This document shows positions 23,301 to 51,561 of a DNA stretch of 56,445 nt, piece after piece; position 1 is the stretch's first letter, and each line of letters opens with the position of its first letter. The translations under genes and the position numbers were made by a program. Source of the stretch: a bacterium (GTDB lineage: Bacteria > Patescibacteriota > Patescibacteriia > Patescibacteriales > UBA12465); the NCBI GenBank assembly GCA_035414245.1, contig DAONYH010000005.1, forward strand, positions 1 through 56,445, read 5' to 3'. Under the pieces are notes generated by a model. The model was given only the letters and a program-made list of their open reading frames with translations. It had not been told where the DNA came from and did no database searches.

Positions 23301-23753
23301 TTAACCGCTTGTTCCGCCTCCACCACCAACACCCCCGCCTAAAGGTAAAATTCTGAAAATAAACCAAGTGATAGTATAAGCAGCAATCACAATTATTAAA
23401 CCAATGATGGCCGCCTTAATTGAAGCAGTCGCTTTTTTAATTTGTTCTTCATTACCTTGCGCTGTCATCCATTTGAAACCGGCTATTAAAGTTAAAACTA
23501 AAAAGATGATCGCTAAGAAACTTAAAACAGTCTGCACTCCGCGCGCAACCAAAACACCAACACTGATATCACCTAAATTAGCAGCATCAGCCGCCTCCTT
23601 GGTCATATCATTCATTTCTCGCGGATTATTTATTAAACCCATTGACGCATTTGATGGCTGGGTGTCTGGCTGAGCATTAACCAAAGTTAAATTCAAAAAA
23701 GCGAAAGTTAGAACAATTATTAAGCTAATAATTTTTTTCATAAATTTATTCAT
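23301..23753 (-). CDS. VirB2/TrbC-like pilin-type small membrane protein, array copy 6 (last transcribed)
   Basis: Signal peptide ending LVNA|QPD, a polar variable segment, TM1, the GFKWMTAQGNEEQIKKATA loop, TM2, and a Gly-rich tail GGGVGGGGGTSG. Confidence 0.7.
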   Translation of the reverse strand: MNKFMKKIISLIIVLTFAFLNLTLVNAQPDTQPSNASMGLINNPREMNDMTKEAADAANLGDISVGVLVARGVQTVLSFLAIIFLVLTLIAGFKWMTAQGNEEQIKKATASIKAAIIGLIIVIAAYTITWFIFRILPLGGGVGGGGGTSG

Positions 23754-24173
23754 TTATTTACCCAAAACTAAACGTTCAAAGATAAATTTCCAAATTGCCC
23801 AAGCTGAAAGAGTCAAAATAAGACCAATTGTCGCCGCCTTAATAGTGGCGGTTGCTTTCTTAATCTTTTCTTCATTACCCGAGGAAGTCATCCAGGTAAA
23901 ACCGGCGATAACCATTAAAATGACAAAAATGACCCCTAAAATACTAGTGAAAGCCCTAATTATTAAGCCAACTATTCGGGGAGCGGAAGCGGTTTGTTCA
24001 TCAGTTACATAACCTCCTTCTTGGGCTATATTCTGTAATCTGTCTAACATTTGATTATCAGAAGCGCTAGTAGATACATCAGAGGTTTGTGCCTGAAGTG
24101 GAGTGATTATTAAAAAGGAAAATAAAAATAAACAAGCTATAATTGAAAAAGTAATTTTTAGGAAATTTTTCAT
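23754..24173 (-). CDS. VirB2/TrbC-like pilin-type small membrane protein, array copy 5
   Basis: Signal peptide ending PLQA|QTSD, a Ser/Thr/Asp-rich segment, TM1, the GFTWMTSSGNEEKIKKATA loop, and TM2. Its stop abuts the start of copy 6. Confidence 0.7.
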   Translation of the reverse strand: MKNFLKITFSIIACLFLFSFLIITPLQAQTSDVSTSASDNQMLDRLQNIAQEGGYVTDEQTASAPRIVGLIIRAFTSILGVIFVILMVIAGFTWMTSSGNEEKIKKATATIKAATIGLILTLSAWAIWKFIFERLVLGK

Positions 24174-24179
24174 AAACTA

Positions 24180-24581
24180 TTATTGAATTAAATTAGCTAA
24201 GACTTTTGATATCCAAGAACTAAGGGCATAAGCGCCTAAAACAATAAATAAACCAATTAAAAGTGATTTAATTTTTTCTTGTGATTCAGCAACTATTTGC
24301 GCATTTCCACCAGCACGCATCCAAGCTTGTCCGGCTAAAAATAAATAAATCATGAAAACAGTTCCCAGAGCAGCTAAAACAATTCTAATAATTCGAGCAA
24401 TTATTACTTCTAAAGTATCAGCTTGTGAATAACCACTTTGACTGGAAATGGCATTAACATTATTTTGCAAATCCTTTTGTTTGTCAGATTTTAAAATTTG
24501 CCCTTGCGCTACTAAAGTGCCGACTGAAAAAATAAAGAAACTTATGGCAAGAATGGTACAAATTTTTTTTAGATTCCACAT
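24180..24581 (-). CDS. VirB2/TrbC-like pilin-type small membrane protein, array copy 4 (most divergent)
   Basis: Same architecture as the other copies; the loop reads GQAWMRAGGNAQIVAESQEKIK. Confidence 0.65.
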   Translation of the reverse strand: MWNLKKICTILAISFFIFSVGTLVAQGQILKSDKQKDLQNNVNAISSQSGYSQADTLEVIIARIIRIVLAALGTVFMIYLFLAGQAWMRAGGNAQIVAESQEKIKSLLIGLFIVLGAYALSSWISKVLANLIQ

Positions 24582-24622
24582 AAATCTTTTTTGAAACTAG
24601 AAATTTAATCCAAGCTAAATAT

Positions 24623-25033
24623 TTAATTCAAACGTCCGACAATAAAGAAAGTAATCGCGTAAGCCGCCAGCGTTATTATTAAGCCAATTAAAGCATCTGT
24701 TAAAATGTTTTTGGCTTTTTTTACTCTTTCTTGATTACCTTCAGCTATCATCCATCTAAAGCCACCATAAATTACAAAGCCAAAGAATATAACTCCAACC
24801 CAAGTTAAAACAGTTAAGATTACTCGGGAAATAATATTATCAACAGTGTCAGCGCCTGGACCGGTTTCAAAGCCGGCTTCATCAGCAGTTGTATCTAAGC
24901 CGCTATCTTTTTGGAAATTATAAGCATTGGCGTAATTGTAGGTGGAACTTAATTGTCCATAAATAAAAATTGGCGCCAAAATTAAAATTAGCGCCCAAGC
25001 CGACCAGGTTTTTTTGTTGAATATTTTTTTCAT
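24623..25033 (-). CDS. VirB2/TrbC-like pilin-type small membrane protein, array copy 3
   Basis: Signal peptide, an acidic variable segment, and the loop GFRWMIAEGNQERVKKAKN between two TM helices. Confidence 0.7.
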   Translation of the reverse strand: MKKIFNKKTWSAWALILILAPIFIYGQLSSTYNYANAYNFQKDSGLDTTADEAGFETGPGADTVDNIISRVILTVLTWVGVIFFGFVIYGGFRWMIAEGNQERVKKAKNILTDALIGLIITLAAYAITFFIVGRLN

Positions 25034-25038
25034 CTTTA

Positions 25039-25443
25039 TTAGCTTAAAATTTCAGTACCGATAAAGGAGGTAATCGCGTAAGCGGCTAAAGTTATAATTA
25101 AGCCGATTGTGGCGTTGATTAACAAATTTTTTGCCTTTGACACCTGTTGTTCATTGCCTTGCGCCGTCATCCAAAGAATACCGGCGTAAATCATTAAAAT
25201 GAAAAATAAGACACCGACAAAGGATAAGAGAATGCTAATAATTTGTCCAACTTTGGTTTGAATAAAGTTGTCATCAACACTTTGTCCTTGATAAGCCTCA
25301 ACTTCTCCTGCTGAATCTTCTAGACCGGCTAAGGGATCATTTGTAATAGCGTTAGCGGTATGAGTGGCAAGGGGACAAAAAAAGAATACACCACTAAAAA
25401 AGGCTAAAAATAAAATCCACGAAAATAATGAGCTTTTCTTCAT
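25039..25443 (-). CDS. VirB2/TrbC-like pilin-type small membrane protein, array copy 2
   Basis: Signal peptide, an acidic variable segment, and the loop GILWMTAQGNEQQVSKAKN between two TM helices. Confidence 0.7.
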   Translation of the reverse strand: MKKSSLFSWILFLAFFSGVFFFCPLATHTANAITNDPLAGLEDSAGEVEAYQGQSVDDNFIQTKVGQIISILLSFVGVLFFILMIYAGILWMTAQGNEQQVSKAKNLLINATIGLIITLAAYAITSFIGTEILS

Positions 25444-25457
25444 AAAGAAAATTTTTA

Positions 25458-25496
25458 CACTGGCCTAAAAACAAAAAATTTGTGTTTAGGCCAGTG
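25458..25496 (-). promoter_or_regulatory. Long stem-loop between array copies 1 and 2 (attenuator / mRNA 3'-stabiliser candidate)
   Basis: CACTGGCCTAAA (25458-25469) pairs perfectly with TTTAGGCCAGTG (25485-25496), with 3 further bp after one mismatch. A second hairpin, GTGATTC/GAATCAC, lies at 25494-25522. No clean U-run follows on the minus strand. Confidence 0.55.
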
Positions 25497-25529
25497 ATTC
25501 CCATATAAAAAATGAGAATCACATATTTA

Positions 25530-25925
25530 TTACATGCCTGTGGTAGTATTGTAAAGAGAACCGACAATGAAGTTGGCAAGAGCCCAAGATAAGAAGATGA
25601 TTGCTAAACCGATAACACCGGCTCCAATCATTTTTTTCGCTTGTGAGACCTTGTCTTCGTTTCCTCCAGCCGTCATCCAAGTGAAACCACCCATTAAAAT
25701 GATGGCTAAAGCGATAACGCCTAAGAAGCCTAGGGCAATGTTAATAATACGACCAACTACCGTTCTCGGATCTTCATTTCCTAATGTGCCGTTTAAGCCA
25801 TCATCAACTTGTTGTAAACCGAAATCACCAGGAGTTGTCTGCGCAGCTACTGGCAAAGCAAGCATGGGCATTAATAGAAAAGAAAGAATAGCAAAAGATA
25901 GTAAGAATTTAGAGATTTTATTCAT
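25530..25925 (-). CDS. VirB2/TrbC-like pilin-type small membrane protein, array copy 1 (first transcribed; candidate major subunit)
   Basis: Signal peptide ending PVAA|QTTPG, the loop GFTWMTAGGNEDKVSQAKK between two TM helices. It is the only array member with a strong Shine-Dalgarno site: AAAGGGGGTGA, 5 nt before the ATG (plus-strand 25931-25941). Confidence 0.75.
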   Translation of the reverse strand: MNKISKFLLSFAILSFLLMPMLALPVAAQTTPGDFGLQQVDDGLNGTLGNEDPRTVVGRIINIALGFLGVIALAIILMGGFTWMTAGGNEDKVSQAKKMIGAGVIGLAIIFLSWALANFIVGSLYNTTTGM

Positions 25926-26051: not shown

Positions 26052-27644
26052 ATGTTAGGAAAAATAAAAAATTTAAAATTTGTCAATATATTTTGGCCTT
26101 TTTTTTATTTGTTGGTTTTTATCATCTTAATAAAAAATGGTTTTTCCTATCTTGATCCTGATTTAGGTTGGCACTTAAAGGTTGGAGAAGAAGCTTTTTT
26201 AAATAAAGCGGCGCCAACTGCTAATCTCTATAATTATACTTATACCGGGAATTGGGTTAATCATGAATGGTTAAGTGATATTGTTCTTTTCCGTCTTTAT
26301 GAAACTGTTGGTTATGAATTTATTGTTATTTTATTTGCCCTTTTGATTGTTATCGCGCTCATAATATTAAATGTTTTTATTTACAAGAACGCGCGCACAA
26401 AAATTTTGTGGCCTATTTTAGCCGGTTTACAATTATTTGGCTTGATGGCTTCTTTGCCTCATTTAGGGGTGAGAATGCAAGAATTGGCCTGGCTGTTTGT
26501 TTTATTTATTTTGATAATTATTCATTATTATCACAAAACCGAAAATTGGCGCTATTTGTTATTTTTGCCGCCCCTATTTTTAGCTTGGGCTAATTTACAT
26601 GGCAGTTTCTTGATTGGTTTTTTTCTCCTCGGTTCTTTTTGGGGATTACAGATTTTTTTACAACTTTATTTTAAAAGTCGTTTAGCACAAAAAATTATTT
26701 TAAAACGCGGCCTAAGCTGGTCAGCGATTAAAATTTTTGGTTTATTTATTGCATTGGCTTGGACCGCTACCTTATTAAACCCTTATCACTTAGGTCTTTA
26801 TGAATTTTTAAGTGGCTATCGCAATTTAGCTTATTTATCTTTAATTAAAGAATGGCTACCACAATCAAATTTTCCTTTTCATTATGATCAATTAATTTAT
26901 TTGGCTTTAGGAATAATCGCGGTTATTTTTTATAGTCTTGATCGTTTGCGCGCTAAAAAAGCCCTAGATGTTTGGTCCTTATTTTTAGTAATTGTTTTTT
27001 CCTTTTTCGCTTTTAAATCAAGACGACATTTCCCCTTATTTTTTATCACTACTTTGCCCTTTTTAGTTTATTTTAATAGCGCTTTTTTTGCTAAAATAAA
27101 AATAGCTTATCAACGTCTCCTTTTTGCCTTAGTATTTTTTTGTTTATTTTTAGTTAGCGCGGAGCAATTAATTATTACTAAATTTAATAAAAATCCTTTT
27201 CAGTCTTATTGCCATAAATATCCTTGCGCAGCGGTTGAGTTTTTAAAAGACAATCAACATTATTTAGAGTATAATATTTTTAATAGCTATATTTGGGGCG
27301 GATATTTAATTTGGAATTTACCTGAGAAAAAAATCTTTATTGACGGACGTTTGCCGCAAGTTAATTTTGCCGGACAAAGTTTTATAGAAGAATATTTTGA
27401 CTTTTTTAAAAGCGAAATCAATCACGCGGAAAAATTGGCCAGCCATGATATTCGTTTAGTTTTGATGGAAGCTAAGGATATTGATCTGGTTGCTAGAAAA
27501 TGGGAGAAAATTTTTTTCCATATTAAAGATGAGGATTTAAAGGCTCATAACAGTTTACGCGATTATTTAGAAAACTCTTCAAGCTGGAAAATTATTTATG
27601 AAGATTCAACCGCTAAAATATATTTTTTAGAGAATCAAGATTAG
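26052..27644 (+). CDS. Polytopic membrane protein, GT-C-like glycosyltransferase candidate with a C-terminal soluble domain
   Basis: 530 aa with about 11-13 TM helices over the first ~370 aa. The first predicted extracytoplasmic loop carries YLDPDLGWHLKVGE (D-x-D type motif). A ~150-aa hydrophilic C-terminal domain follows. Assigned by architecture only. Confidence 0.4.
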   Translation: MLGKIKNLKFVNIFWPFFYLLVFIILIKNGFSYLDPDLGWHLKVGEEAFLNKAAPTANLYNYTYTGNWVNHEWLSDIVLFRLYETVGYEFIVILFALLIVIALIILNVFIYKNARTKILWPILAGLQLFGLMASLPHLGVRMQELAWLFVLFILIIIHYYHKTENWRYLLFLPPLFLAWANLHGSFLIGFFLLGSFWGLQIFLQLYFKSRLAQKIILKRGLSWSAIKIFGLFIALAWTATLLNPYHLGLYEFLSGYRNLAYLSLIKEWLPQSNFPFHYDQLIYLALGIIAVIFYSLDRLRAKKALDVWSLFLVIVFSFFAFKSRRHFPLFFITTLPFLVYFNSAFFAKIKIAYQRLLFALVFFCLFLVSAEQLIITKFNKNPFQSYCHKYPCAAVEFLKDNQHYLEYNIFNSYIWGGYLIWNLPEKKIFIDGRLPQVNFAGQSFIEEYFDFFKSEINHAEKLASHDIRLVLMEAKDIDLVARKWEKIFFHIKDEDLKAHNSLRDYLENSSSWKIIYEDSTAKIYFLENQD

Positions 27645-30646: not shown

Positions 30647-31096
30647 TTATCTACTTAAATTTACTGTTCCGTTAAAAGAAAACTTGCCCTGTGCGCCTAA
30701 AGTATCGGCAACAAATTTGATTATTAGCCAGCTGGAAAAAACAATTATTAACCCAATGATAGCTGCTATTAATGTCCTTTTTGCTTTTGCAATTTTATCG
30801 CTTGAGCCGGCGGAAATTAAAAACATTACTCCTCCGTAAACAAACATTATTAAAGCTAAAGAGCCGACTAAACCAAGAATTAACTGCGCAATATTAATTG
30901 CTAGAGTAACCAAATCACTCACTGCGTAGTCGCCGCAGTAGGTTCCATCTTTACAAGTAGTATCTCCGGTGGCGGCTGGCATTATTCCTCCTTGAGCTAA
31001 AGCATTTTCTATTAAGGGCGAATTATTGATAGTAAAAATTCCAAGAAAAAATAAGATACTGAAAAGCGAGGTAATGAATAGACTTTTTTTAAACAT
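30647..31096 (-). CDS. VirB2/TrbC-like pilin-type small membrane protein, dispersed copy 7
   Basis: Signal peptide ending NALA|QGG, a variable segment with a Cys pair (TTCKDGTYCGDY), TM1, the loop GGVMFLISAGSSDKIAKAKR, TM2, and an extended tail. Confidence 0.65.
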   Translation of the reverse strand: MFKKSLFITSLFSILFFLGIFTINNSPLIENALAQGGIMPAATGDTTCKDGTYCGDYAVSDLVTLAINIAQLILGLVGSLALIMFVYGGVMFLISAGSSDKIAKAKRTLIAAIIGLIIVFSSWLIIKFVADTLGAQGKFSFNGTVNLSR

Positions 31097-32530: not shown

Positions 32531-34156
32531 TTAATCAAGGCGCGGACGATATTGAATGGCCTCGGCAATATGACAACTTTTAATCGCCGAACAATTTTCT
32601 AAATCAGCAATCGTGCGTGCGATTTTAAAAATCTTAAAATAAGAACGATTTGATAAATTTAATTTTTTTGCGGCCGCACTTATTAATTCTAGACCATCGT
32701 GATTAACTCGGCAAAAAAGATTTATTTTATTTGTGGGGATGTAAGCGTTAAGTGGATAAGGAAATTCTGATAGACGTTTAGCTTGAATTTCACGCGCCCT
32801 TTTTATAGTTTCTTTCGTTTTTTCAACATTATTAACATTATCAACATCATTAATTTCAAGATTATTTAGAGCGTGATTATTTAATTCTTCAGGCGACAGA
32901 TTAGAAACTTCAACTTGCAGATCAATTCTATCTAGAATAGGACCGGAAATTTTTTGTCGGTATTTATTTATTTTTTCTGGAGTGCAAAAACAATTTTTTC
33001 CTTTTATACCTTTAAAACCACAAGGACAAAGATTCATGGCTGCAATCAAAATAAACCGAGCTGGTAAAAATAGATTGCCACCAGCGCGACTGATAGTTAT
33101 TTGTCCAGTTTCCAGTGGTTGCCTTAAACTTTCTATCACCGAGCGATTAAATTCAGGAAATTCATCAAGAAATAAAATACCGAGATGCGCCAAGGAAATT
33201 TCCCCGGGTCTAAATTTTGTTCCTCCACCAATCATAGCCACTGTTGAAGCACTATGATGAGGCGCGCGAAAAGGACGTTTTAAATTTAAAGAATAATTAT
33301 TGGTTCTTGAATAATTATTAATTCCTGAATAATTATTGATCCCCGGTATGTCAGCGGCGCTATAAATTTGCGCGATTGCTAGTGATTCCTCGGCACTTAA
33401 AGGGGGCAAGATACTCATGGCGGCTTGCGCTAAAGAAGTTTTGCCACTCCCGGGCGGACCACTTAATAAAATATTATGACCGCCGGCAATAGCTATTTTT
33501 AAAGCCCGCTTAGCTTGTTCTTGTCCGTGAATTTTAGAAAAATCAAAAACATCACTTGCCTTGTTGCTAGTATTATTATTTAGGGGCGGATTATTTATTG
33601 ACGAATTATTTATTAGTGTTTTTAGCGAGTATTTTTTAAAAATTATTTCTTTAGTTAAAGACAAGAAAAAGTCGCGCAGATTATATAAAGGAATAATGTC
33701 TAAACCAGCAACCAAACTAGCTTCTGAACAATTTTCTAAAGGTAAAAAAATTTTTTTCAAACCCTGTTTTTTGGCAGTCAGAGCCAATGCCACCGCTCCT
33801 TTTATTTTTTTTATTTCTCCAGACAAAGATAGCTCTCCCGCGATTAAGCAATCAGCCAAATTATATTTTAGTTCGTATTTTAAAGCTAAAATACTAATGG
33901 CAATCGGAACATCATAGCTTGAACCAACTTTTTTTAAGTCGGCCGGCGCTAAATTTATAGTCACCTTTCTTTTAGGAAATTCAAAATTACTGTTTTTTAT
34001 TGCGCCTCTCACTCTTTCCTTAGCTTCGGTTAATGATGTATCAGGCAGACCGACGATAATCATCTGACCAAAATCACCACCACCGAGAGTAGCTTCAATT
34101 TCTACTATTTGTGCGTTAATACCAATCAGCGCTCCAGATAAAATTTTTTGAATCAT
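32531..34156 (-). CDS. comM: YifB/ComM-family Mg-chelatase-like AAA+ ATPase
   Basis: Lon-protease-like N-domain, Walker A LLSGPPGSGKTSLA, RPFRAPHHSAS, and LFLDEFPEF. The preferred start is MIQKIL (34156), because the longer ORF would run into a hairpin. Confidence 0.88.
   Translation of the reverse strand: MIQKILSGALIGINAQIVEIEATLGGGDFGQMIIVGLPDTSLTEAKERVRGAIKNSNFEFPKRKVTINLAPADLKKVGSSYDVPIAISILALKYELKYNLADCLIAGELSLSGEIKKIKGAVALALTAKKQGLKKIFLPLENCSEASLVAGLDIIPLYNLRDFFLSLTKEIIFKKYSLKTLINNSSINNPPLNNNTSNKASDVFDFSKIHGQEQAKRALKIAIAGGHNILLSGPPGSGKTSLAQAAMSILPPLSAEESLAIAQIYSAADIPGINNYSGINNYSRTNNYSLNLKRPFRAPHHSASTVAMIGGGTKFRPGEISLAHLGILFLDEFPEFNRSVIESLRQPLETGQITISRAGGNLFLPARFILIAAMNLCPCGFKGIKGKNCFCTPEKINKYRQKISGPILDRIDLQVEVSNLSPEELNNHALNNLEINDVDNVNNVEKTKETIKRAREIQAKRLSEFPYPLNAYIPTNKINLFCRVNHDGLELISAAAKKLNLSNRSYFKIFKIARTIADLENCSAIKSCHIAEAIQYRPRLD
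33291..33344 (-). repeat. In-frame 18-bp x3 tandem repeat inside comM
   Basis: The plus strand reads GAATAATTATTGGTTCTT / GAATAATTATTAATTCCT / GAATAATTATTGATCCCC, encoding GINNYS-GINNYS-RTNNYS. Confidence 0.95.
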
Positions 34157-34309
34157 AAAATTAAAATCGCCCTGCAAAGAGCGATTTTATTTTAACAGAT
34201 AGCGAGTAAAGTATTGCTAAACTAATATTAAATTTTCAGTTAAATTATTTTTTACGCGGAATAAACAAACGAGAAGTAAATTAATGCGAGATTTTTTAGA
34301 TTGAAAAAA

Positions 34310-41288: not shown

Positions 41289-42029
41289 ATGCGAGAAAAA
41301 TTAAGCGAACAATTAAGTAAGATTTTAGTTGTCTTTCTCTTCTTTTTATCATTTTTGTTAATATTTAATATCAATGATAAAGAAGTAATATTGAGCGATG
41401 AGGAGTTAGATTTAGTGGCTAATGTCTGGGAAGAAAATAATGAAGAGTATGATTATCTAATTAATAACGAAGTAGATATTTTAGAAGATGGCTTGTTTGA
41501 GGTTATTAAAGTTGTAGATGGTGATACGATTAAGGTCAATATAAATGGTGAAGAGAAAACAGTCAGATTAATTGGGATTAACACACCAGAAGTAGTTGAT
41601 CCTAGAAAAACAGTTGAATGTTTTGGTCGGGAAGCATCAGCCAAAGCTAAGGAAATTTTGGAAAATAAAAAAGTTAAGTTAGAAAGCGATTTTAGTCAAG
41701 ACAATTATGATCGCTATGGGCGGCTATTGCGTTATGTATATTTGGAAGACGGATTATTTTTTAATGAATGGATGATTGAGAATGGTTATGCTTTTGAATA
41801 TACTTATGAACTGCCTTATCAATATCAAACAGAATTTAAAAATGCGCAGAGATTTGCTCAGGATAATAAAATGGGATTATGGGCTGATGGTGTCTGTGAT
41901 TATTTTACCGAATCAAATACAGAATTAGACAAAGAGGAAGTCAAATCAGATTCAAATAAAAATTTAAAAGATAATTTAGCTCAATTTATAAAAAATAGTA
42001 TAATAAGGAATGTATGGAAAAAAGATTAA
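41289..42029 (+). CDS. Membrane-anchored/secreted staphylococcal-nuclease-like (SNase/thermonuclease) protein
   Basis: N-terminal TM helix, then ...VVDGDTIKVNINGEEKTVRLIGINTPE...CFGREASAKAKE...DRYGRLLRYVYLEDG...NEWMIENGYA..., the SNase core. Confidence 0.85.
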   Translation: MREKLSEQLSKILVVFLFFLSFLLIFNINDKEVILSDEELDLVANVWEENNEEYDYLINNEVDILEDGLFEVIKVVDGDTIKVNINGEEKTVRLIGINTPEVVDPRKTVECFGREASAKAKEILENKKVKLESDFSQDNYDRYGRLLRYVYLEDGLFFNEWMIENGYAFEYTYELPYQYQTEFKNAQRFAQDNKMGLWADGVCDYFTESNTELDKEEVKSDSNKNLKDNLAQFIKNSIIRNVWKKD

Positions 42030-42475
42030 TCACGCAAAGTGCCAAGGCCAGTTTTGTTTTAGGAAAAAAATTGGGCAGTCAGTTATCAGGCGGAGAGTTT
42101 TTAGCTTTGACCGGTGATTTAGGCTCGGGAAAAACCACTTTTTTACAGGGATTAGCACAAGGACTAGGTGTCTTAGCGAAAGTTAATAGTCCGACTTTTA
42201 ATATTTTGAAAATTTATAAAACCAAGAAAGGGGCAACGGTTAAGAGTTTTTGTCATATTGACGCTTATCGTTTAAATTCGGCGCGTGAATTAGAAAATTT
42301 GGGTTTTGACGAACTACTTGAACAAAAAGATTTAGTCATTGCTTTGGAATGGGCCGATAAGGTAAAAAGTATTTTGCCTCAGTGCAGAATAAATATTGCT
42401 ATAAAGCACAAAACAAATCAAATCAGAGAAATAAAAATTAAATCTACCATCAAAGCTATTAAATTAGATTTATAA
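42014..42475 (+). CDS. tsaE: tRNA t6A37 biosynthesis ATPase TsaE
   Basis: [33 protein letters not shown] and HIDAYRL motifs. Confidence 0.88.
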
Positions 42476-46116: not shown

Positions 46117-46237
46117 AATAAGTCAAAAAATTCTTGGTAATTATTACTAATTTATGTTATAATATTATCAGAGTTTATCTAGTTTTTCAATCAACATTAA
46201 TAATTAAGCTAAACTGTCAAGTTGGCTTTTAAATTTT

Positions 46238-47224
46238 ATGTTTTCTTATCGTTCAATCTTAAAACAATCTTGGAACATCGCTTGGAAGCACAAGTATCTT
46301 TGGATTTTCGGACTCTTTGCTTCTATTGCGGCCGCCAGTGGCTCATTTGAGTACCAAATAATTTCTACTGGACTCCAAAATGGCGCTTTGGAAAATTCTT
46401 ACTACCAAATTAATCATTGGTTTGCCATTTTAGCTGCCATCTCCCAATTTTTAGTTGGTTTTTCTCAGCTTTTTTCTTATGATATTTTTACGATTATCAA
46501 TGTTTTATCAATCGTAATTGTTACTTTCATTTTAATTGTTTCTTTTTTTTGGTTGGCAATTTCTTCGCAAGGAGCTTTGGTTGTTAGTGTTAAAAAATTA
46601 TTAACCGCTAAAAAGAAAGCGCCGGATTTAAATTTAAGAGAAAATTTAGCGGTGGGACATCGTCATTTTTGGCCGGTTTTAGGATTTAATGTTTTAGCTA
46701 AGGTAATTATTAGCTTAATTTTAATCATTGTTAGTTTACCCCTAATTTTATTAACCTTAGTCGGAACATCTTATTTAGCTTTAGTTTATACTTTAACCTT
46801 CTTAATTTTAGTTCCTATTGCCGTGTCTTGCGCTTTAATTTTAAAATATGCCATCGCTTTTCAAGTTTTAGAAAAAGGTGATTTTTTCTCCTCTATTAAG
46901 AAAGCGTGGCGACTTTTTATTGGCAGTTGGTTGATTAGTTTAGAGATGGGCATCTTATTATTTATTATCAGCTTCTTGTTTGGTTTTATTATTTTAATAT
47001 TCTTAGCCCTCGTTGTTTTCCCTTATTTTATTTTTGCTTTAAGCTATGGTCTCACTTGGTTAATTATTTTATTAGGTTTGGCAACTTTAATAATTGTTAT
47101 TTTGTCCGGCTCCTTTATTACCACTTTCCAAATAGCTACTTGGACTAACTTATTTTTAGAATTAAAAGGAGGAAAGGGAGAGGCTAAGTTAGAACGTTTA
47201 GCTAAACCAAAGACCAAGAAGTAA
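46238..47224 (+). CDS. Polytopic membrane protein of unknown function
   Basis: 328 aa, about 6-7 TM helices and a Lys-rich tail. It ends 35 nt upstream of the double ATPase gene on the same strand. Confidence 0.6.
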   Translation: MFSYRSILKQSWNIAWKHKYLWIFGLFASIAAASGSFEYQIISTGLQNGALENSYYQINHWFAILAAISQFLVGFSQLFSYDIFTIINVLSIVIVTFILIVSFFWLAISSQGALVVSVKKLLTAKKKAPDLNLRENLAVGHRHFWPVLGFNVLAKVIISLILIIVSLPLILLTLVGTSYLALVYTLTFLILVPIAVSCALILKYAIAFQVLEKGDFFSSIKKAWRLFIGSWLISLEMGILLFIISFLFGFIILIFLALVVFPYFIFALSYGLTWLIILLGLATLIIVILSGSFITTFQIATWTNLFLELKGGKGEAKLERLAKPKTKK

Positions 47225-47259: not shown

Positions 47260-50200
47260 ATGAGTAAATTAGATTCAATTGAAAGTTTAATAAATCCAAA
47301 TACAGGCGACGACGAAAGCGTCGCCGGTATTTTTGCGAGCAAACAGCAGGAAATTAAAAGCAAGGAAGAAGAAAGAAAAACTCAAAGAGATGCTTATAGT
47401 CTAGGAATGGACTATGTTAGTTTAATTAAATTTCCGGTTAGCCCTGAAGCTTTAATATTAATTCCTGAAAAAAGAGCCAGGGAAATTAAGGCGGTTTGTT
47501 TTTTCTATGACGGGAAAAATATTCGTTTGGGTTGTCTTTATCCTACTCAAGAAGTAATTGAGGAAATGGAAAGACTAAAAGAACAATATTATTGTGAAAC
47601 AAAACTATATTTAATTTCTCAAAACAGTTTTGAACGCGCTTTGGAAGTTTATAAAATTGTTCCTAAAGTAAAAAAATATAGTAGCGGTGTAGAAATTAGC
47701 TCTGAGCAACTTAAGAGATTTAAAGACGAATTGACTAGTTTTAAAAGTTTGAATGAAAAAATAAACGAAGTAAATATTACCGATGTTGTTACTTTAATGT
47801 TAGCGACGGCGATTAAGGTGAGCGCTAGTGATATTCATATTGAAGCTGAAGAAAGCGGTGTGGTGGTTAGAATTAGAATTGATGGTGTTTTGCAGGAAGC
47901 AGCAGTAATTGTGCGAGAAAAATGGCAAAAAATAATTTCTCGTTTAAAAATTTTAGCGCGGGTAAAAATAAATATTGATAAAAAACCGCAAGATGGTCGT
48001 TTTACAATTTATCTTGATGATCATAAAATTGATGTGCGTTGTTCTTTTTTACCAACCGCTTTTGGTGAAAGCGTGGTAATGCGTATTTTAGATGCTAAAG
48101 CTGATTCTTTAGATATTGAAAATTTAGGAATTAGACCAGAAATAGTGCCGATTTTAAAAAGAGAAATTTCTAAGCCGAATGGCTTAGTTTTGGCCACCGG
48201 GCCAACCGGTAGCGGCAAAACTACTACTTTATATTCAATTCTAAAAAAACTTAATAAGCCGGGTATAAAAATTATTACTTTAGAGGATCCGATTGAGTAT
48301 CGGCTGGAAGGCATTAATCAAAGTCAGGTTGATAGAAAACAGGGCTTTAGTTTTTCTGATGGTTTAAAATCGGTTTTGCGCCAAGACCCGAATATTGTGA
48401 TGGTAGGAGAAATACGCGATTTGGAAACAGCGGAAATTTCTATTCAAGCCGCTTTGACCGGTCACTTGGTTTTATCCACTTTACACACTAATGATGCTTC
48501 TGGTGTTATTCCGCGTTTAATTGATATTGGTGTAAAACCATATTTCTTAGCCCCATCTTTAAATGCAGTGATTGGGCAACGTTTAATCAGATTGCTTTGT
48601 CCTAAATGTCGACAAGAACAAACCCCGACCAAGGATGAGGAAGAAATGATTGCTAAGATTTTAGCGGTTATTTCTCCGAAAGCAGGCGTTGAAGTGCCAA
48701 CAATTCTACCGACTATTTATCAGGCTGGTGAAGGTTGTGAACATTGTAACTTTACTGGCTACAAAGGACGATCTGGTATCTTTGAAATATTTACTATTAC
48801 TGATAATATCCGTCAATTAACAGTTGACCAAGCGCCATCATTTAAAATATTACAACAAGCGATTGAAAATGGCATGATTACCATGTTACAAGACGGAGTA
48901 TTGAAAGTTTTGGAAGGGGTAACTAGTCTAGAAGAAGTGTATCGCGTGGTTGGTAACTTTGATTATGTTGATGAGTTGTATGATATTGTTATTTCGCAAA
49001 CCATTGGTCGAGGAATTAGAATTGATACAGAACAAATGGCTGAAGTAACCGACTTGGCCAAAGATATTTTAAATATTAATGATAAGGTAAAAAATTTACC
49101 CACTTCTCGTTTAATCGGTTTGACTATGGGATTAGCAGCACAAAGAGATGCCGGAGATATTCATATTGAACCAACTGAAAATAATGTGAAAGTTCGTTTT
49201 CGTATTGATGGTATAATGCACGATATTTTAACTCTGCCTAAAACCAGTTATTTGCCTTTAATATCGGAAATAAAAATTTTAGCCGGTACCCCGACTAATA
49301 TTAAGAAAGCCACTTTTGACGGTCGCTTTAGTATTTATTTGCCGGAAAAGAAAAAAATTGATTGTCGTTTATCAATTATTTCCGGTGGTTATGGAGAAAC
49401 AATTGTTATTCGTTTGCTTTCCACTTCGGCTGCTAATTTAGATATGGAAAAATTGGGCATTACTTCAACTTCCTTAACCGCCATGCAGAACGCGATGAAG
49501 AAAAATCGCGGTATTATTATTACTACTGGGCCAACGGGCAGCGGTAAAACCACGACTTTGTATAGTATTTTAAATAAGCTTAATAAACCTGATGTTAAGA
49601 TTATTACGGTTGAAGATCCGATTGAATATCAATTGGCCGGAGTCATGCAAACGCAAATTGATGAAGCTCATGGCTATACTTTTGCCTCTGCCATGCGTTC
49701 CTTGCTTCGTCAAAATCCAAACATTATGATGATTGGGGAAATCAGAGATGCAGAAACAGCTAAGATTGCGATTGAAGCTTCAATGACTGGTCACTTAGTA
49801 TTATCCACTATTCATGCCAATAGCGCTGCCAGCGCGGTTTCTCGCTTTTCCGGTTTAGGCGTTGATCGTCAGGCACTCGCTAATTCAATGGAGTTTGCGA
49901 TTGGACAAAGATTAGTGAGAAGAATTTGTCCTCATTGTAAACAAGTTCATGAAGTAAATCCGGAAGATTTAAAAAGAGTAAAAGAAGCTCTTAAAGCTAT
50001 TAATAATCCGGCTGTTAAAATACCTGAACAATTAACATTTTATAAAGGAGCGGGTTGCGATAAATGCGGTCAAATTGGCTACAAAGGACGAATTGGTTTG
50101 TATGAAACAATTGAGATGATTCCGGAAATCAGAAAAATAATTCAAGAAGAAAAAATAACCGACTATGAAATAGAACAAATTGCCATTAAAAATGGCATGG

Positions 50201-50277
50201 TTACTATGTTGCAAGATGGTATTTTAAAAGCCTTGGCCGGAGAAACTGCGCTTGAAGAAGTTTTCCGAGTCGCTTAA
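47260..50277 (+). CDS. Tandem-duplicated GspE/PilB-family secretion ATPase (two complete ATPase modules in one polypeptide)
   Basis: A GspII_E-N-like N-terminus is followed by two full modules. Walker A GPTGSGKTTT occurs at 48199-48228 and 49528-49557. Walker B reads IVMVGEIRD / IMMIGEIRD, and the His box TGHLVLSTLHTN / TGHLVLSTIHAN. Each module has a tetracysteine motif (CPKC...CEHC and CPHC...CDKC). Confidence 0.9.
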   Translation: MSKLDSIESLINPNTGDDESVAGIFASKQQEIKSKEEERKTQRDAYSLGMDYVSLIKFPVSPEALILIPEKRAREIKAVCFFYDGKNIRLGCLYPTQEVIEEMERLKEQYYCETKLYLISQNSFERALEVYKIVPKVKKYSSGVEISSEQLKRFKDELTSFKSLNEKINEVNITDVVTLMLATAIKVSASDIHIEAEESGVVVRIRIDGVLQEAAVIVREKWQKIISRLKILARVKINIDKKPQDGRFTIYLDDHKIDVRCSFLPTAFGESVVMRILDAKADSLDIENLGIRPEIVPILKREISKPNGLVLATGPTGSGKTTTLYSILKKLNKPGIKIITLEDPIEYRLEGINQSQVDRKQGFSFSDGLKSVLRQDPNIVMVGEIRDLETAEISIQAALTGHLVLSTLHTNDASGVIPRLIDIGVKPYFLAPSLNAVIGQRLIRLLCPKCRQEQTPTKDEEEMIAKILAVISPKAGVEVPTILPTIYQAGEGCEHCNFTGYKGRSGIFEIFTITDNIRQLTVDQAPSFKILQQAIENGMITMLQDGVLKVLEGVTSLEEVYRVVGNFDYVDELYDIVISQTIGRGIRIDTEQMAEVTDLAKDILNINDKVKNLPTSRLIGLTMGLAAQRDAGDIHIEPTENNVKVRFRIDGIMHDILTLPKTSYLPLISEIKILAGTPTNIKKATFDGRFSIYLPEKKKIDCRLSIISGGYGETIVIRLLSTSAANLDMEKLGITSTSLTAMQNAMKKNRGIIITTGPTGSGKTTTLYSILNKLNKPDVKIITVEDPIEYQLAGVMQTQIDEAHGYTFASAMRSLLRQNPNIMMIGEIRDAETAKIAIEASMTGHLVLSTIHANSAASAVSRFSGLGVDRQALANSMEFAIGQRLVRRICPHCKQVHEVNPEDLKRVKEALKAINNPAVKIPEQLTFYKGAGCDKCGQIGYKGRIGLYETIEMIPEIRKIIQEEKITDYEIEQIAIKNGMVTMLQDGILKALAGETALEEVFRVA

Positions 50278-50405: not shown

Positions 50406-50981
50406 ATGATTGATAAAAAATTTTTAGAAACTTTACGCGCTGATTACTTGGCTAATGAAAAAGAAAGACGGCAAATTATTAATGCCTCCAATAATCTTTT
50501 ATTTGAAGCAAAAAAAATAATTTTTTTATTACAACGTCAAGATTTTAAAGAAGCAGAAAAAAAGTTCGCTGAATTAGAGAGTTTATTTAAAAATTTAGCC
50601 AAAAAATTTGGCTTAGAGCGTTTAAAAAAGGAAGGAACTTATAAAGCAGCGGCTGAAGAATATTTAGAAGCAAAAACCTTGTTTTTGGTCATCAAAAAAA
50701 AGAAAATCGGACCAATTAAAGATTTGGTTTTTGATTACGAAGCTTACCTGGGAGGAATTTGCGACCTAATTGGCGAACTAGTTCGTTATGCCACGAATCA
50801 AGCGGCCAAAGGAAAGTTTGCGGAAGTTTATAAGATTAAAAAAACCGCCGAAGAAATTATGGCTCAACTGATTGATTTTGATTTAACAGGTTACTTAAGA
50901 ACTAAATATGATCAAGCCCGTGGTCATTTAAGAAAACTGGAGCAAATGGCCTACGAAATTCGTCTAAGAACCGATAAATAG
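50406..50981 (+). CDS. Translin-family protein
   Basis: ...YLEAKTLFLVI..., ...YLGGICDLIGELVRYATNQAAKGKF..., ...LRTKYDQARGHLRKLEQMAYEI fit the translin helical-bundle pattern. Assigned by eye. Confidence 0.6.
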   Translation: MIDKKFLETLRADYLANEKERRQIINASNNLLFEAKKIIFLLQRQDFKEAEKKFAELESLFKNLAKKFGLERLKKEGTYKAAAEEYLEAKTLFLVIKKKKIGPIKDLVFDYEAYLGGICDLIGELVRYATNQAAKGKFAEVYKIKKTAEEIMAQLIDFDLTGYLRTKYDQARGHLRKLEQMAYEIRLRTDK

Positions 50982-50985
50982 TTTT

Positions 50986-51486
50986 ATGAAAATAGTAATC
51001 ATTTCCGATCTTCATGATAATATTTTTAATCTGGAAAAATTGCTTAACTGGTGTCAGAAAAATAAAATCAGTAAAATAATTTGTTGTGGTGATGTTTGCA
51101 GCGCTGCCACGCTAAAATTTCTCTCCGCCCAATTTAACGGTGAGATTTTTTTAGTTTTAGGGAATGGTGATTTTTATGAGAAGAAAGATTATCAAAAAAT
51201 GAAAAATGTTCGTTATTATGGTTTAGTGGGAGAAGAAAAAATTTCTGGCTTAAATTTTATTTTTTCCCACTATGAAAAAGAAATTAAGAAAGAACTTGAG
51301 GTTAGCAAAGAAAAATTTGACTTTGCTTTTTATGGTCATAGTCATAAACCCTGGTTAGAAAAAAAAGGAAAATTAATATTGGCCAACCCCGGAAACTTAG
51401 CGGGCATTTTTTATAACCCTACTTTCGCAGTTTTAGACACGACCACTAAAAATTTAGAATTAAAAATTTTAGATGAAACATTTTAA
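50986..51486 (+). CDS. YfcE/MJ0936-type metallophosphoesterase
   Basis: The motifs ISDLHDN, CCGDV, LGNGD and YGHSH occur in the canonical order. Confidence 0.8.
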   Translation: MKIVIISDLHDNIFNLEKLLNWCQKNKISKIICCGDVCSAATLKFLSAQFNGEIFLVLGNGDFYEKKDYQKMKNVRYYGLVGEEKISGLNFIFSHYEKEIKKELEVSKEKFDFAFYGHSHKPWLEKKGKLILANPGNLAGIFYNPTFAVLDTTTKNLELKILDETF

Positions 51487-51534: not shown

Positions 51535-51561
51535 AAAAATGGGGTAAAAGCCCCATTTTTG
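51535..51561. terminator. Bidirectional terminator between convergent genes
   Basis: AAATGGGG-TAAAAG-CCCCATTT, flanked by A and T runs. Confidence 0.75.

Follow-up and report, generated by a model that had tools for sequence, protein, structure and literature searches.

A PilB/GspE-family ATPase with two motor modules in one chain is a recurrent form of a PilB-paralog clade seen in Patescibacteria

Does a single bacterial gene here encode two complete secretion-type motors, and if so, how did the arrangement arise and what might it drive? The question is raised by a stretch of 56,445 nt (the window; positions 1 to 56,445 of the forward strand of contig DAONYH010000005.1, assembly GCA_035414245.1, from a member of the Patescibacteriota), in which a preliminary description made from the letters alone had singled out the gene at 47260 to 50277 as a PilB/GspE-type ATPase with two intact modules. 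The open reading frame (ORF) on the + strand starts with ATG and encodes 1005 aa followed by a stop codon. The T2SSE profile PF00437 was found twice by Pfam scan (E 2e-232 for the whole protein), and the chain was arranged as N1 (T2SSE_N/MshEN)-[N2D-CTD]-linker-[N2D-CTD], with N1 matched by PF05157 (MshEN/T2SSE_N) at residues 48-129 (E 2.1e-5; 24.8 bits against a cut-off of 23.1). Each half carried: (i) one Walker A motif, GPTGSGKT, starting at residues 314 and 757; (ii) one Walker B motif, GEIRD, at residues 383-387 and 826-830; (iii) one His box, TGH, at residues 400-402 and 843-845; and (iv) two CxxC pairs, starting at 447/493 and 890/933. Self-BLAST of residues 149-564 against 591-1005 aligned the two modules at 44% identity over 418 aa (E 3e-125), and in the 115-aa core from Walker A to beyond the His box the identity was 60.9%, close to the roughly 62% previously counted by eye. 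One gene with two intact modules was thus borne out by the ORF, the double profile match, and the motifs in each half. The features of the gene, all on the + strand, are the following.

47260..50277, +, two-module PilB/GspE-family ATPase gene, 1005 aa plus stop
47401..47646, +, N1 domain, once per chain, residues 48-129 (PF05157; AlphaFold2 per-residue confidence, pLDDT, 80-90)
47623..48951, +, duplication unit copy 1, residues ~122-564, comprising the last helix of N1, the N1-N2 linker, N2D-1, and CTD-1 (self-alignment, DNA repeat spacing)
47773..48951, +, module 1 core, residues 172-564 (Pfam, motifs, alignments, mapping to Geobacter PilB, Foldseek)
48199..48222, +, Walker A of module 1, GPTGSGKT, residues 314-321 (motif; K320 invariant in alignments A2 and A3)
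48952..50274, +, duplication unit copy 2, residues 565-1005, comprising the inter-module linker 565-613, N2D-2, and CTD-2 (self-alignment)
49099..50274, +, module 2 core, residues 614-1005 (Pfam, motifs, alignments, mapping to Geobacter PilB)
49528..49551, +, Walker A of module 2, GPTGSGKT, residues 757-764 (motif; K763 invariant in alignments A2 and A3)

A tandem gene of this kind might be produced by assembly or annotation, through a repeat that was collapsed or duplicated or through two neighboring genes taken for a single one. Were the second copy a product of assembly, it would be almost identical to the first; the DNA of the two halves was only 71-72% identical over the best 103-159 nt (spacing 1320-1329 nt), which excludes an assembly artifact. 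The same architecture, as an ORF of 1003-1027 aa, was detected in more than 120 protein clusters from independent assemblies and projects; the best 120 database relatives all fell in this length range, with full coverage and 71-100% identity. These homologs came from NCBI, JGI, ENA, and Logan assemblies and included the closed 977-kb genome CP066698.1. The concern that the duplication was assembly-induced was hence dismissed, and we regard an artifact of either type as practically negligible. A search of 1.8 billion representatives, clustered at 50% identity, added 13 further two-module clusters (P0121-P0133) at 38-63% identity, and the closest named protein relatives were labeled Patescibacteria or Candidatus Falkowbacteria. 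A profile search of genome contigs, which is a sample and not a census, returned mostly ordinary PilBs among the matches listed, with the locus L014 as the sole new two-module case among them.

The extent of the duplicated unit was delimited by the inter-module segment. Homology was found between residues 565-592 and residues 122-150, a stretch that covers the N1 end and the N1-N2 linker, with a local alignment score of 31 compared with 16.2 ± 3.1 for shuffled sequences; none of 1000 shuffles reached this score, and the family consensus sequences concurred. This homology indicates that a unit of 443 aa, residues ~122-564, was duplicated in frame to give residues 565-1005, its length being in agreement with the DNA repeat spacing. 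By this alignment, the inter-module "linker" is itself a copy of the N1 tail, and its conserved motif, G[ND]FDYVxELYDIVISQTIGRG, corresponds to a second copy of the last N1 helix. The DNA identity of 71-72%, together with a linker that is still recognizable as an N1-tail homolog, points to an old duplication.

Whether both modules have kept a working active site was assessed by combining the residue functions published for Geobacter PilB (PilB_Gm; bioRxiv 10.1101/082750) with alignment of that protein to both modules. The mapped residues are as follows.

N2D arginine, salt bridge with E357: PilB_Gm R257; module 1 R247; module 2 R689
N2D arginines sensing the neighbor's gamma-phosphate: PilB_Gm R271 and R286; module 1 R260 and R275; module 2 R703 and R718
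Walker A lysine: module 1 K320; module 2 K763
Asp-box glutamate: PilB_Gm E357; module 1 E346; module 2 E789
Further Asp-box residue: module 1 E342; module 2 E785
Catalytic glutamate: PilB_Gm E395; module 1 E384; module 2 E827
Pore glutamate: PilB_Gm E400; module 1 E389; module 2 E832
His box: PilB_Gm T411, H413, and H420; module 1 T400, H402, and H409; module 2 T843, H845, and H852
Arginine: PilB_Gm R455; module 1 R444; module 2 R887
Tetracysteine: module 1 Cys 447/450/493/496; module 2 Cys 890/893/933/936

Every catalytic and inter-subunit residue of Geobacter PilB was accounted for in both modules, in keeping with the initial impression that neither half is degenerate. Among the residues with a numbered PilB_Gm counterpart and the Walker A lysines, all but E832 were either invariant or conserved to 90% or more in the alignment of 46 family members; E832 was invariant among 36 close relatives. 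Almost all of these residues were likewise kept in 14 clusters whose identity falls as low as 38%. Judged from this conservation, both modules are probably active as ATPases and able to sense the neighboring site.

Assignment of the protein to a known family was examined at the level of the single module. The PilB model TIGR02538 scored 488 bits for N1 plus module 1 and 416 bits for module 2, against a cut-off of 675.65, and the whole protein, at 893 bits, passes only through the summing of its two modules. The GspE model TIGR02533 gave 488 and 435 bits per module (cut-off 630.25) and the ComGA model NF041000 gave 250 and 237 bits (cut-off 300). For the whole protein, the GspE/PilB models scored about 900 bits, compared with 98 bits for VirB11 (TIGR02788; cut-off 250) and 103 bits for TrbB (cut-off 305). 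Of the properties of the broader T2SSE/PilT-like family, those present were the PF00437 profile, in each module a Walker A, an Asp box, a Walker B, and a His box, and, in the AlphaFold2 (AF2) models, the predicted bilobed N2D+CTD fold. The T2SSE_N (GSPII) domain and Zn-binding tetracysteine expected of a PilB were likewise found, whereas the expected partners PilC, PilM, PilT, and type IV pilins were not, either in the 56-kb window or within 10 kb of the related loci described below. No GspF, GspL, or pseudopilin genes, as expected for a GspE, and no comG-like operon, as expected for a ComGA, were found nearby. These profile scores mark the 1005-aa protein as a GspE/PilB-family ATPase of generic type and set it apart from VirB11.

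Comparison with characterized systems showed both shared and differing features. Compared with PilB (Geobacter metallireducens 5TSG/5TSH/6OLJ; Myxococcus 3JC8; Thermus PilF 5IT5/5OIU), the modules share the N2D+CTD fold at 42-47% identity, the Walker A, Asp box, Walker B, and His box, the N2D arginine fingers, the pore glutamate, the tetracysteine, and a single T2SSE_N-type domain; the window protein differs in having two modules per chain, in not being encoded with PilC, PilT, or PilM, and in belonging to a separate clade, here seen in Patescibacteria only. Similarity to GspE/EpsE (4PHT, 1P9R, 4KSR) was as strong as to PilB, with shared motifs and Zn-binding cysteines, but the window protein is tandem and scores under the cut-off. 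The 913-aa PilF of Thermus thermophilus (6F8L) is also a PilB homolog enlarged by internal duplication; however, PilF triplicates its N-terminal GSPII domain and keeps one motor, whereas here it is the motor that was duplicated. Two nucleotide-binding modules per chain are a familiar feature of the type II AAA+ proteins p97, NSF, and ClpB, which provide a precedent for division of labor, although these belong to another ATPase superfamily, form stacked rings, and are related in sequence only through the P-loop.

To place the gene among its relatives, 92 fetched loci were scanned with local hidden Markov models (HMMs) built from annotated neighbors. The ATPase loci of Patescibacteria fell into two classes: (i) class A, a canonical cluster of PilB (~580 aa), PilT (~360 aa), and PilC; and (ii) class B, with the neighborhood PolA-TsaE | DHH-ATPase-RuvB-YebC-RuvC, in which the DHH neighbor is weakly NrnA-like. 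A PilC/GspF-like gene was found in 55 of the 92 loci, and neither PilC nor PilT was present within 10 kb in any of the 29 class B loci. Class B included single-module ATPases (550-700 aa), ATPases lacking N1 (433-450 aa), and every two-module Patescibacteria protein. The window ATPase grouped with class B by its clade (100/100 bootstrap), by a TsaE gene 4.8 kb upstream (42014-42475, +), and by the absence of PilC and PilT; in the window, a 328-aa membrane protein occupies the DHH slot, as it does in the single-module loci L010 and L013. The single-module and N1-less class B ATPases (e.g., L011, L015, L020, L024, and L032) share the clade (100/100) and the genomic slot of the window protein, from which they differ in having one module, with or without N1; it is from these direct relatives that the tandem forms arose. 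The survey that the preliminary description had called for returned two-module versions that are common in the lineage and set in a class B neighborhood without PilC or PilT within 10 kb. In two Saccharibacteria metagenome-assembled genomes (L059, 9345-12867; L037, 1499-5021), a class A PilB followed directly by PilC occupies the slot divergent from tsaE, so that a pilB-pilC locus may have been the ancestor of the class B locus.

Phylogenetic trees were built by neighbor joining from Kimura-corrected distances over ~385 columns; these are simple distance trees, the deep order of which needs likelihood methods. The 32 class B modules formed one clade (100/100 bootstrap) that included both halves of every Patescibacteria two-module protein examined and excluded the class A PilBs of Patescibacteria as well as the PilB/GspE proteins of other bacteria; this clade was found here in Patescibacteria only. 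Since both halves fell inside class B, the duplication is placed within class B and fusion of distant paralogs was ruled out, as had been surmised from the similarity of the halves. The second modules (M2) of 14 proteins, including that of the window, formed one clade (79%), the internal order of which mirrors that of their first-module (M1) partners, indicating one old duplication. The linker motif was common to the 12 of 14 cluster representatives that belong to this shared-duplication group. In two other proteins, M1 and M2 were instead sisters (100% each), at 74% identity in P0129 (L012) and 55% in P0128 (L003), with linkers that were shorter and different; these are best explained as independent duplications, gene conversion being less likely. 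A further tandem PilB of 1047 aa, P0134, also had modules that were each other's closest relatives and was placed among PilBs of records outside Patescibacteria; since only the second module matched the Walker A pattern, the first may be degenerate. From these groupings, tandem duplication appears to have occurred at least three times in class B, plus once in P0134. The single-module L010 and L013 nested beside M1 of the window clade (79%), a placement that points either to M2 having been lost later or to long-branch attraction of M2, which evolves faster (mean pairwise identity 42.5% for M2-M2 and 48.1% for M1-M1); no linker remnant was found at the C-termini of single-module relatives, a result that does not separate M2 loss from gain. 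A neighbor-joining tree of all 161 representative modules, in which neither M1 nor M2 was monophyletic, was replaced by trees annotated with locus context, the non-monophyly being traced to fragments of genes that had been entered as single-module proteins, to duplications that arose independently, and to saturation at around 45% identity. Overall, the gene represents a recurrent, conserved tandem-motor form of an uncharacterized PilB-paralog clade, here observed in Patescibacteria only.

How might such chains assemble? In the AF2 model of the full-length monomer, every domain was folded (mean pLDDT 81.8), the placement of the domains was uncertain (predicted template modeling score, pTM, 0.51), and the linker helix at residues 568-584 had a pLDDT below 50. 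By Foldseek, each module superposed on PilB 5tsh/5tsg at target-normalized template modeling scores (TMt) of 0.90-0.94, with 5it5 also matched; no solved chain spanned both modules (query-normalized score, TMq, at most 0.37). Rings of the PilB family consist of six packing units, each formed by the N2D of one subunit and the CTD of the next, and PilB crystallizes with C2 symmetry (bioRxiv 10.1101/082750). Solved structures include, by entry title, both 'C2ccocco' and 'C3ocococ' forms, and PilT is also found in the C3 'ocococ' form. With two intact motor units and one docking domain in each chain, the simplest assembly that follows from this packing would be a pseudo-hexamer of three chains. 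An in-frame tandem duplication of residues ~122-564 would have generated the N1-[N2D-CTD]-linker-[N2D-CTD] chain, three copies of which would close the ring with the alternation of M1 and M2 fixed. All packing units would then be heterotypic, with N2D-1 on CTD-2 and N2D-2 on CTD-1, one contact being intrachain and the other interchain, and the ring would present three N1 docking domains instead of six. The retention of N1, the pore glutamates, and the Zn site suggests that the class B ATPase would still act on, and drive, a PilC/PilM-type membrane platform of a type IV-filament machine. The neighboring translin, YfcE-like and DHH phosphoesterases, Ruv, and PolA suggest that this machine may serve DNA uptake or competence, for which the case is circumstantial. 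Natural competence is known in Patescibacteria, in which com and type IV pilus (T4P) genes are widespread (PMC10633639), and T4P locus 2 of TM7x carries recA/recX (PMC11623550). Taken together, a duplicated PilB-type motor with both modules active, assembled as a three-chain pseudo-hexamer and driving a type IV-filament or DNA-uptake machine, is the reading that we favor, with a probability of roughly 0.6.

This reading has to be weighed against several findings and against other ways of using two modules. Counting against it are that: (i) PilC, PilM, PilT, PilD, and pilin genes were found near the gene in 0 of the 29 class B loci; (ii) both modules score below the NCBIfam equivalog thresholds of PilB, GspE, and ComGA; (iii) AF2 gave no confident inter-module placement, with a pTM of 0.51 at full length and 0.62 for the CTD1-linker-N2D2 sub-construct; (iv) one Saccharibacterium can grow without ComEC, which makes nucleotide scavenging a weaker rationale (PMC10633639); and (v) the synteny with Ruv, PolA, and TsaE may be an inherited gene order without functional meaning. 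The low pTM of the sub-construct, in which N2D-2 was not confidently placed on CTD-1, would also suit six chains arranged as two stacked homotypic rings, one of M1 and one of M2, in the manner of p97 or ClpB; the ~49-residue linker (565-613), predicted to be helical at low confidence, could span two tiers, and tandem ATPases of other superfamilies usually stack. No stacked ring was found among the solved PilT-like ATPases retrieved, however, N1 is present on M1 only, and the pore face engages the platform protein, so that a second tier would sit far from the membrane; we consider stacking unlikely. That one module is a regulatory pseudo-ATPase, which binds ATP without hydrolyzing it while the other alone drives the work, would fit the faster evolution of M2 (42.5% compared with 48.1%), its lack of an N1 of its own, and the single Walker A match in the separate tandem protein P0134, but in the 46 sequences both modules keep the Walker A lysine, Asp-box glutamate, catalytic glutamate, His box, and three arginine fingers, and this reading is judged quite improbable.

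If the class B ATPase were now no pilus motor and instead handled nucleic acids in the cytoplasm or at the membrane together with its neighbors (DNA translocation, recombination support), its consistent separation from PilC, PilT, and pilins would be expected, as would the persistent company of a DHH phosphoesterase, RuvB/YebC/RuvC, PolA or PolX, UvrA, translin, and GIY-YIG, and the loss of N1 from some members (433-450 aa). The retained N1, pore glutamates, and Zn-binding cysteines speak against such a change of role, ruvB-yebC-ruvC is a widespread housekeeping cluster that may adjoin the gene incidentally, and we know of no PilB/GspE-family ATPase that acts without a PilC/GspF-type platform; we hold this explanation to be rather improbable. 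The preliminary description had also asked whether the ATPase serves VirB2-like pilins, of which the window encodes seven by Pfam (PF18895, 'T4SS_pilin'):

23301-25925, -, six tandem PF18895 paralogs, ~130-150 aa each
30647-31096, -, one separate PF18895 gene, ~130-150 aa

No VirB4, VirB6, or VirB11 gene was detected in the window, and the absence of VirB4 and VirB11, together with the seven pilin genes, counts in favor of the idea. It is nevertheless not supported, as the VirB11 model scored ~98 bits against a cut-off of 250 while the GspE/PilB models scored ~900, a distance of more than 16 kb separates the ATPase from the pilin genes, which are on the opposite strand, and no PF18895 gene was present within 10 kb of the ortholog in 10 related Pfam-annotated loci. 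To our knowledge, no PilB/GspE-type ATPase polymerizes VirB2-type pilins, and the proposal is very improbable. Within the favored reading of a three-chain pseudo-hexamer, a further-reaching version is put forward only tentatively and is itself doubtful: the covalent dimers might lock a strict M1-M2 alternation, with a C3 'ocococ'-like cycle unlike the C2 of PilB, in a motor that would be matched to a platform and dedicated to importing nucleic acid, coupled to the neighboring translin, phosphoesterase, and Ruv functions, and the repeated origin, at least three times in Patescibacteria, might reflect selection for fused motors in ultrasmall cells.

Full-text literature searches retrieved no description of a two-module PilB/GspE protein. 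Of the earlier proviso that tandem PilB fusions may turn out to be common and already characterized in this lineage, the first part held, and for the second no characterizing paper was found. Two-module sequences have been public under generic names since at least the GW2011 Parcubacteria genomes (KKU82539.1). In the published analysis of TM7x, PilB1 and PilB2 are the only PilBs listed, each encoded together with PilC, and no mention is made of an orphan PilB linked to Ruv or of a tandem one (PMC11623550). Current debate over PilB/PilT-type hexamers turns on how they convert ATP hydrolysis into pilin insertion, in particular on which of their interfaces fire and on whether the cycle is C2 or C3. 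In studies of ring ATPases, covalent dimers are often engineered so that the subunits keep a set order; natural covalent dimers with both sites intact, from hundreds of organisms and several origins, provide material for mutagenesis of alternating positions. A phylum-wide PilB paralog that is set apart from the T4P clusters of Saccharibacteria, among recombination and repair genes, also bears on DNA acquisition by epibionts that are both reduced and competent.

The gene neighborhood of the ATPase in the window has the form of a compact putative operon, with the following features around the ATPase gene.

46134..46163, +, promoter-like site TTGGTA-18-TATAAT with TG, 5′ of the membrane-protein gene (consensus pattern match only)
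46238..47224, +, protein with multiple transmembrane (multi-TM) segments, 328 aa, 35 nt upstream of the ATPase gene (weak DUF7544/DUF4013 similarity)
50406..50981, +, translin-family protein, 191 aa (PF01997, E 2.9e-20)
50986..51486, +, YfcE-type calcineurin-like phosphodiesterase, 166 aa, last gene of the putative operon (PF12850, E 2.9e-25; TIGR00040, 67.3 bits against 56.25)
51535..51560, - (strand as called by the scan), terminator-like hairpin of 10 pairs between the phosphodiesterase gene and the convergent uvrA (pattern match only)

The promoter-like site is a possible start of a four-gene operon. The upstream multi-TM gene, previously taken for the only apparent operon partner, is real and was conserved beside the ATPase in relatives, including an unannotated ORF of 326 aa in L001, at a distance of 3 nt from the ATPase, and one of 333 aa in L093, both on the upstream side. 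A local HMM seeded with the membrane proteins of the window and L001 also matched the ORFs upstream of the ATPase in the single-module loci L010 and L013. The family of the 328-aa protein has 287 detectable members, the named ones all labeled Patescibacteria or Falkowbacteria. Its candidacy as a divergent PilC was rejected, as only the weak DUF7544/DUF4013 similarity and no PilC HMM match was obtained. Translin, a family best known from eukaryotes and archaea, is a conserved downstream partner of the tandem ATPase in this sub-clade; it follows the ATPase by 4 nt in L001 (13017-13592) and also lies downstream in L093 (8653-9234; ATPase identity 63%), where a 98-aa GIY-YIG gene intervenes to give the order membrane protein-ATPase-GIY-YIG-translin. 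The YfcE-like gene was found at the equivalent position in L001, and in CP066698.1 the membrane protein, ATPase, translin, and phosphodiesterase genes are packed with gaps of 3-4 nt. Pfam scans of 44 ORFs, comprising most of those of at least 80 aa, agreed with the preliminary description in finding no PilC, PilM/N/O, PilD, or PilA-type pilin in the window, and neither the local PilC/GspF HMM nor a prepilin-motif regular expression gave a match there.

Several further observations were made in the related loci and in the rest of the window. The N1-less class B ATPases came from records of Wildermuthbacteria (L024), Saccharibacteria (L025), a Patescibacteria group (L028), Nealsonbacteria (L032), and Staskawiczbacteria (L040), and all five (433-450 aa) keep the PolA-TsaE-(DHH)-X-Ruv context. 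Three separate T2SSE genes were encoded in each of L021, L034, L057, L058, L060, L066, L085, L089, and L091, most of which are titled Planctomycetota/Verrucomicrobiota (the record titles of L058 and L085 carry no phylum); their lengths were mostly those of PilB-PilT-PilB, with three PilB-length genes in L060 and PilB-PilB-PilT in L085, such that these loci multiply motors by separate genes, not by fusion. The window has a guanine-plus-cytosine (GC) content of ~33% and is chromosomal, with six tRNA genes and housekeeping genes for IF3, L20, RNase J, PPDK, SMC, GlyRS, ArgRS, and UvrA. Among its genes related to DNA uptake or processing are a ComM-like Mg-chelatase-family ATPase (32531-34177, -) and a secreted-type staphylococcal-nuclease homolog (41289-42029, +). 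A 530-aa ORF (26052-27644) that adjoins the PF18895 paralogs had no Pfam match. A complete bacterial 16S rRNA gene was identified at 319-1802 (-; 1435 bits), with no 23S rRNA gene visible in the window, and accounts for the rise in GC at the window start.

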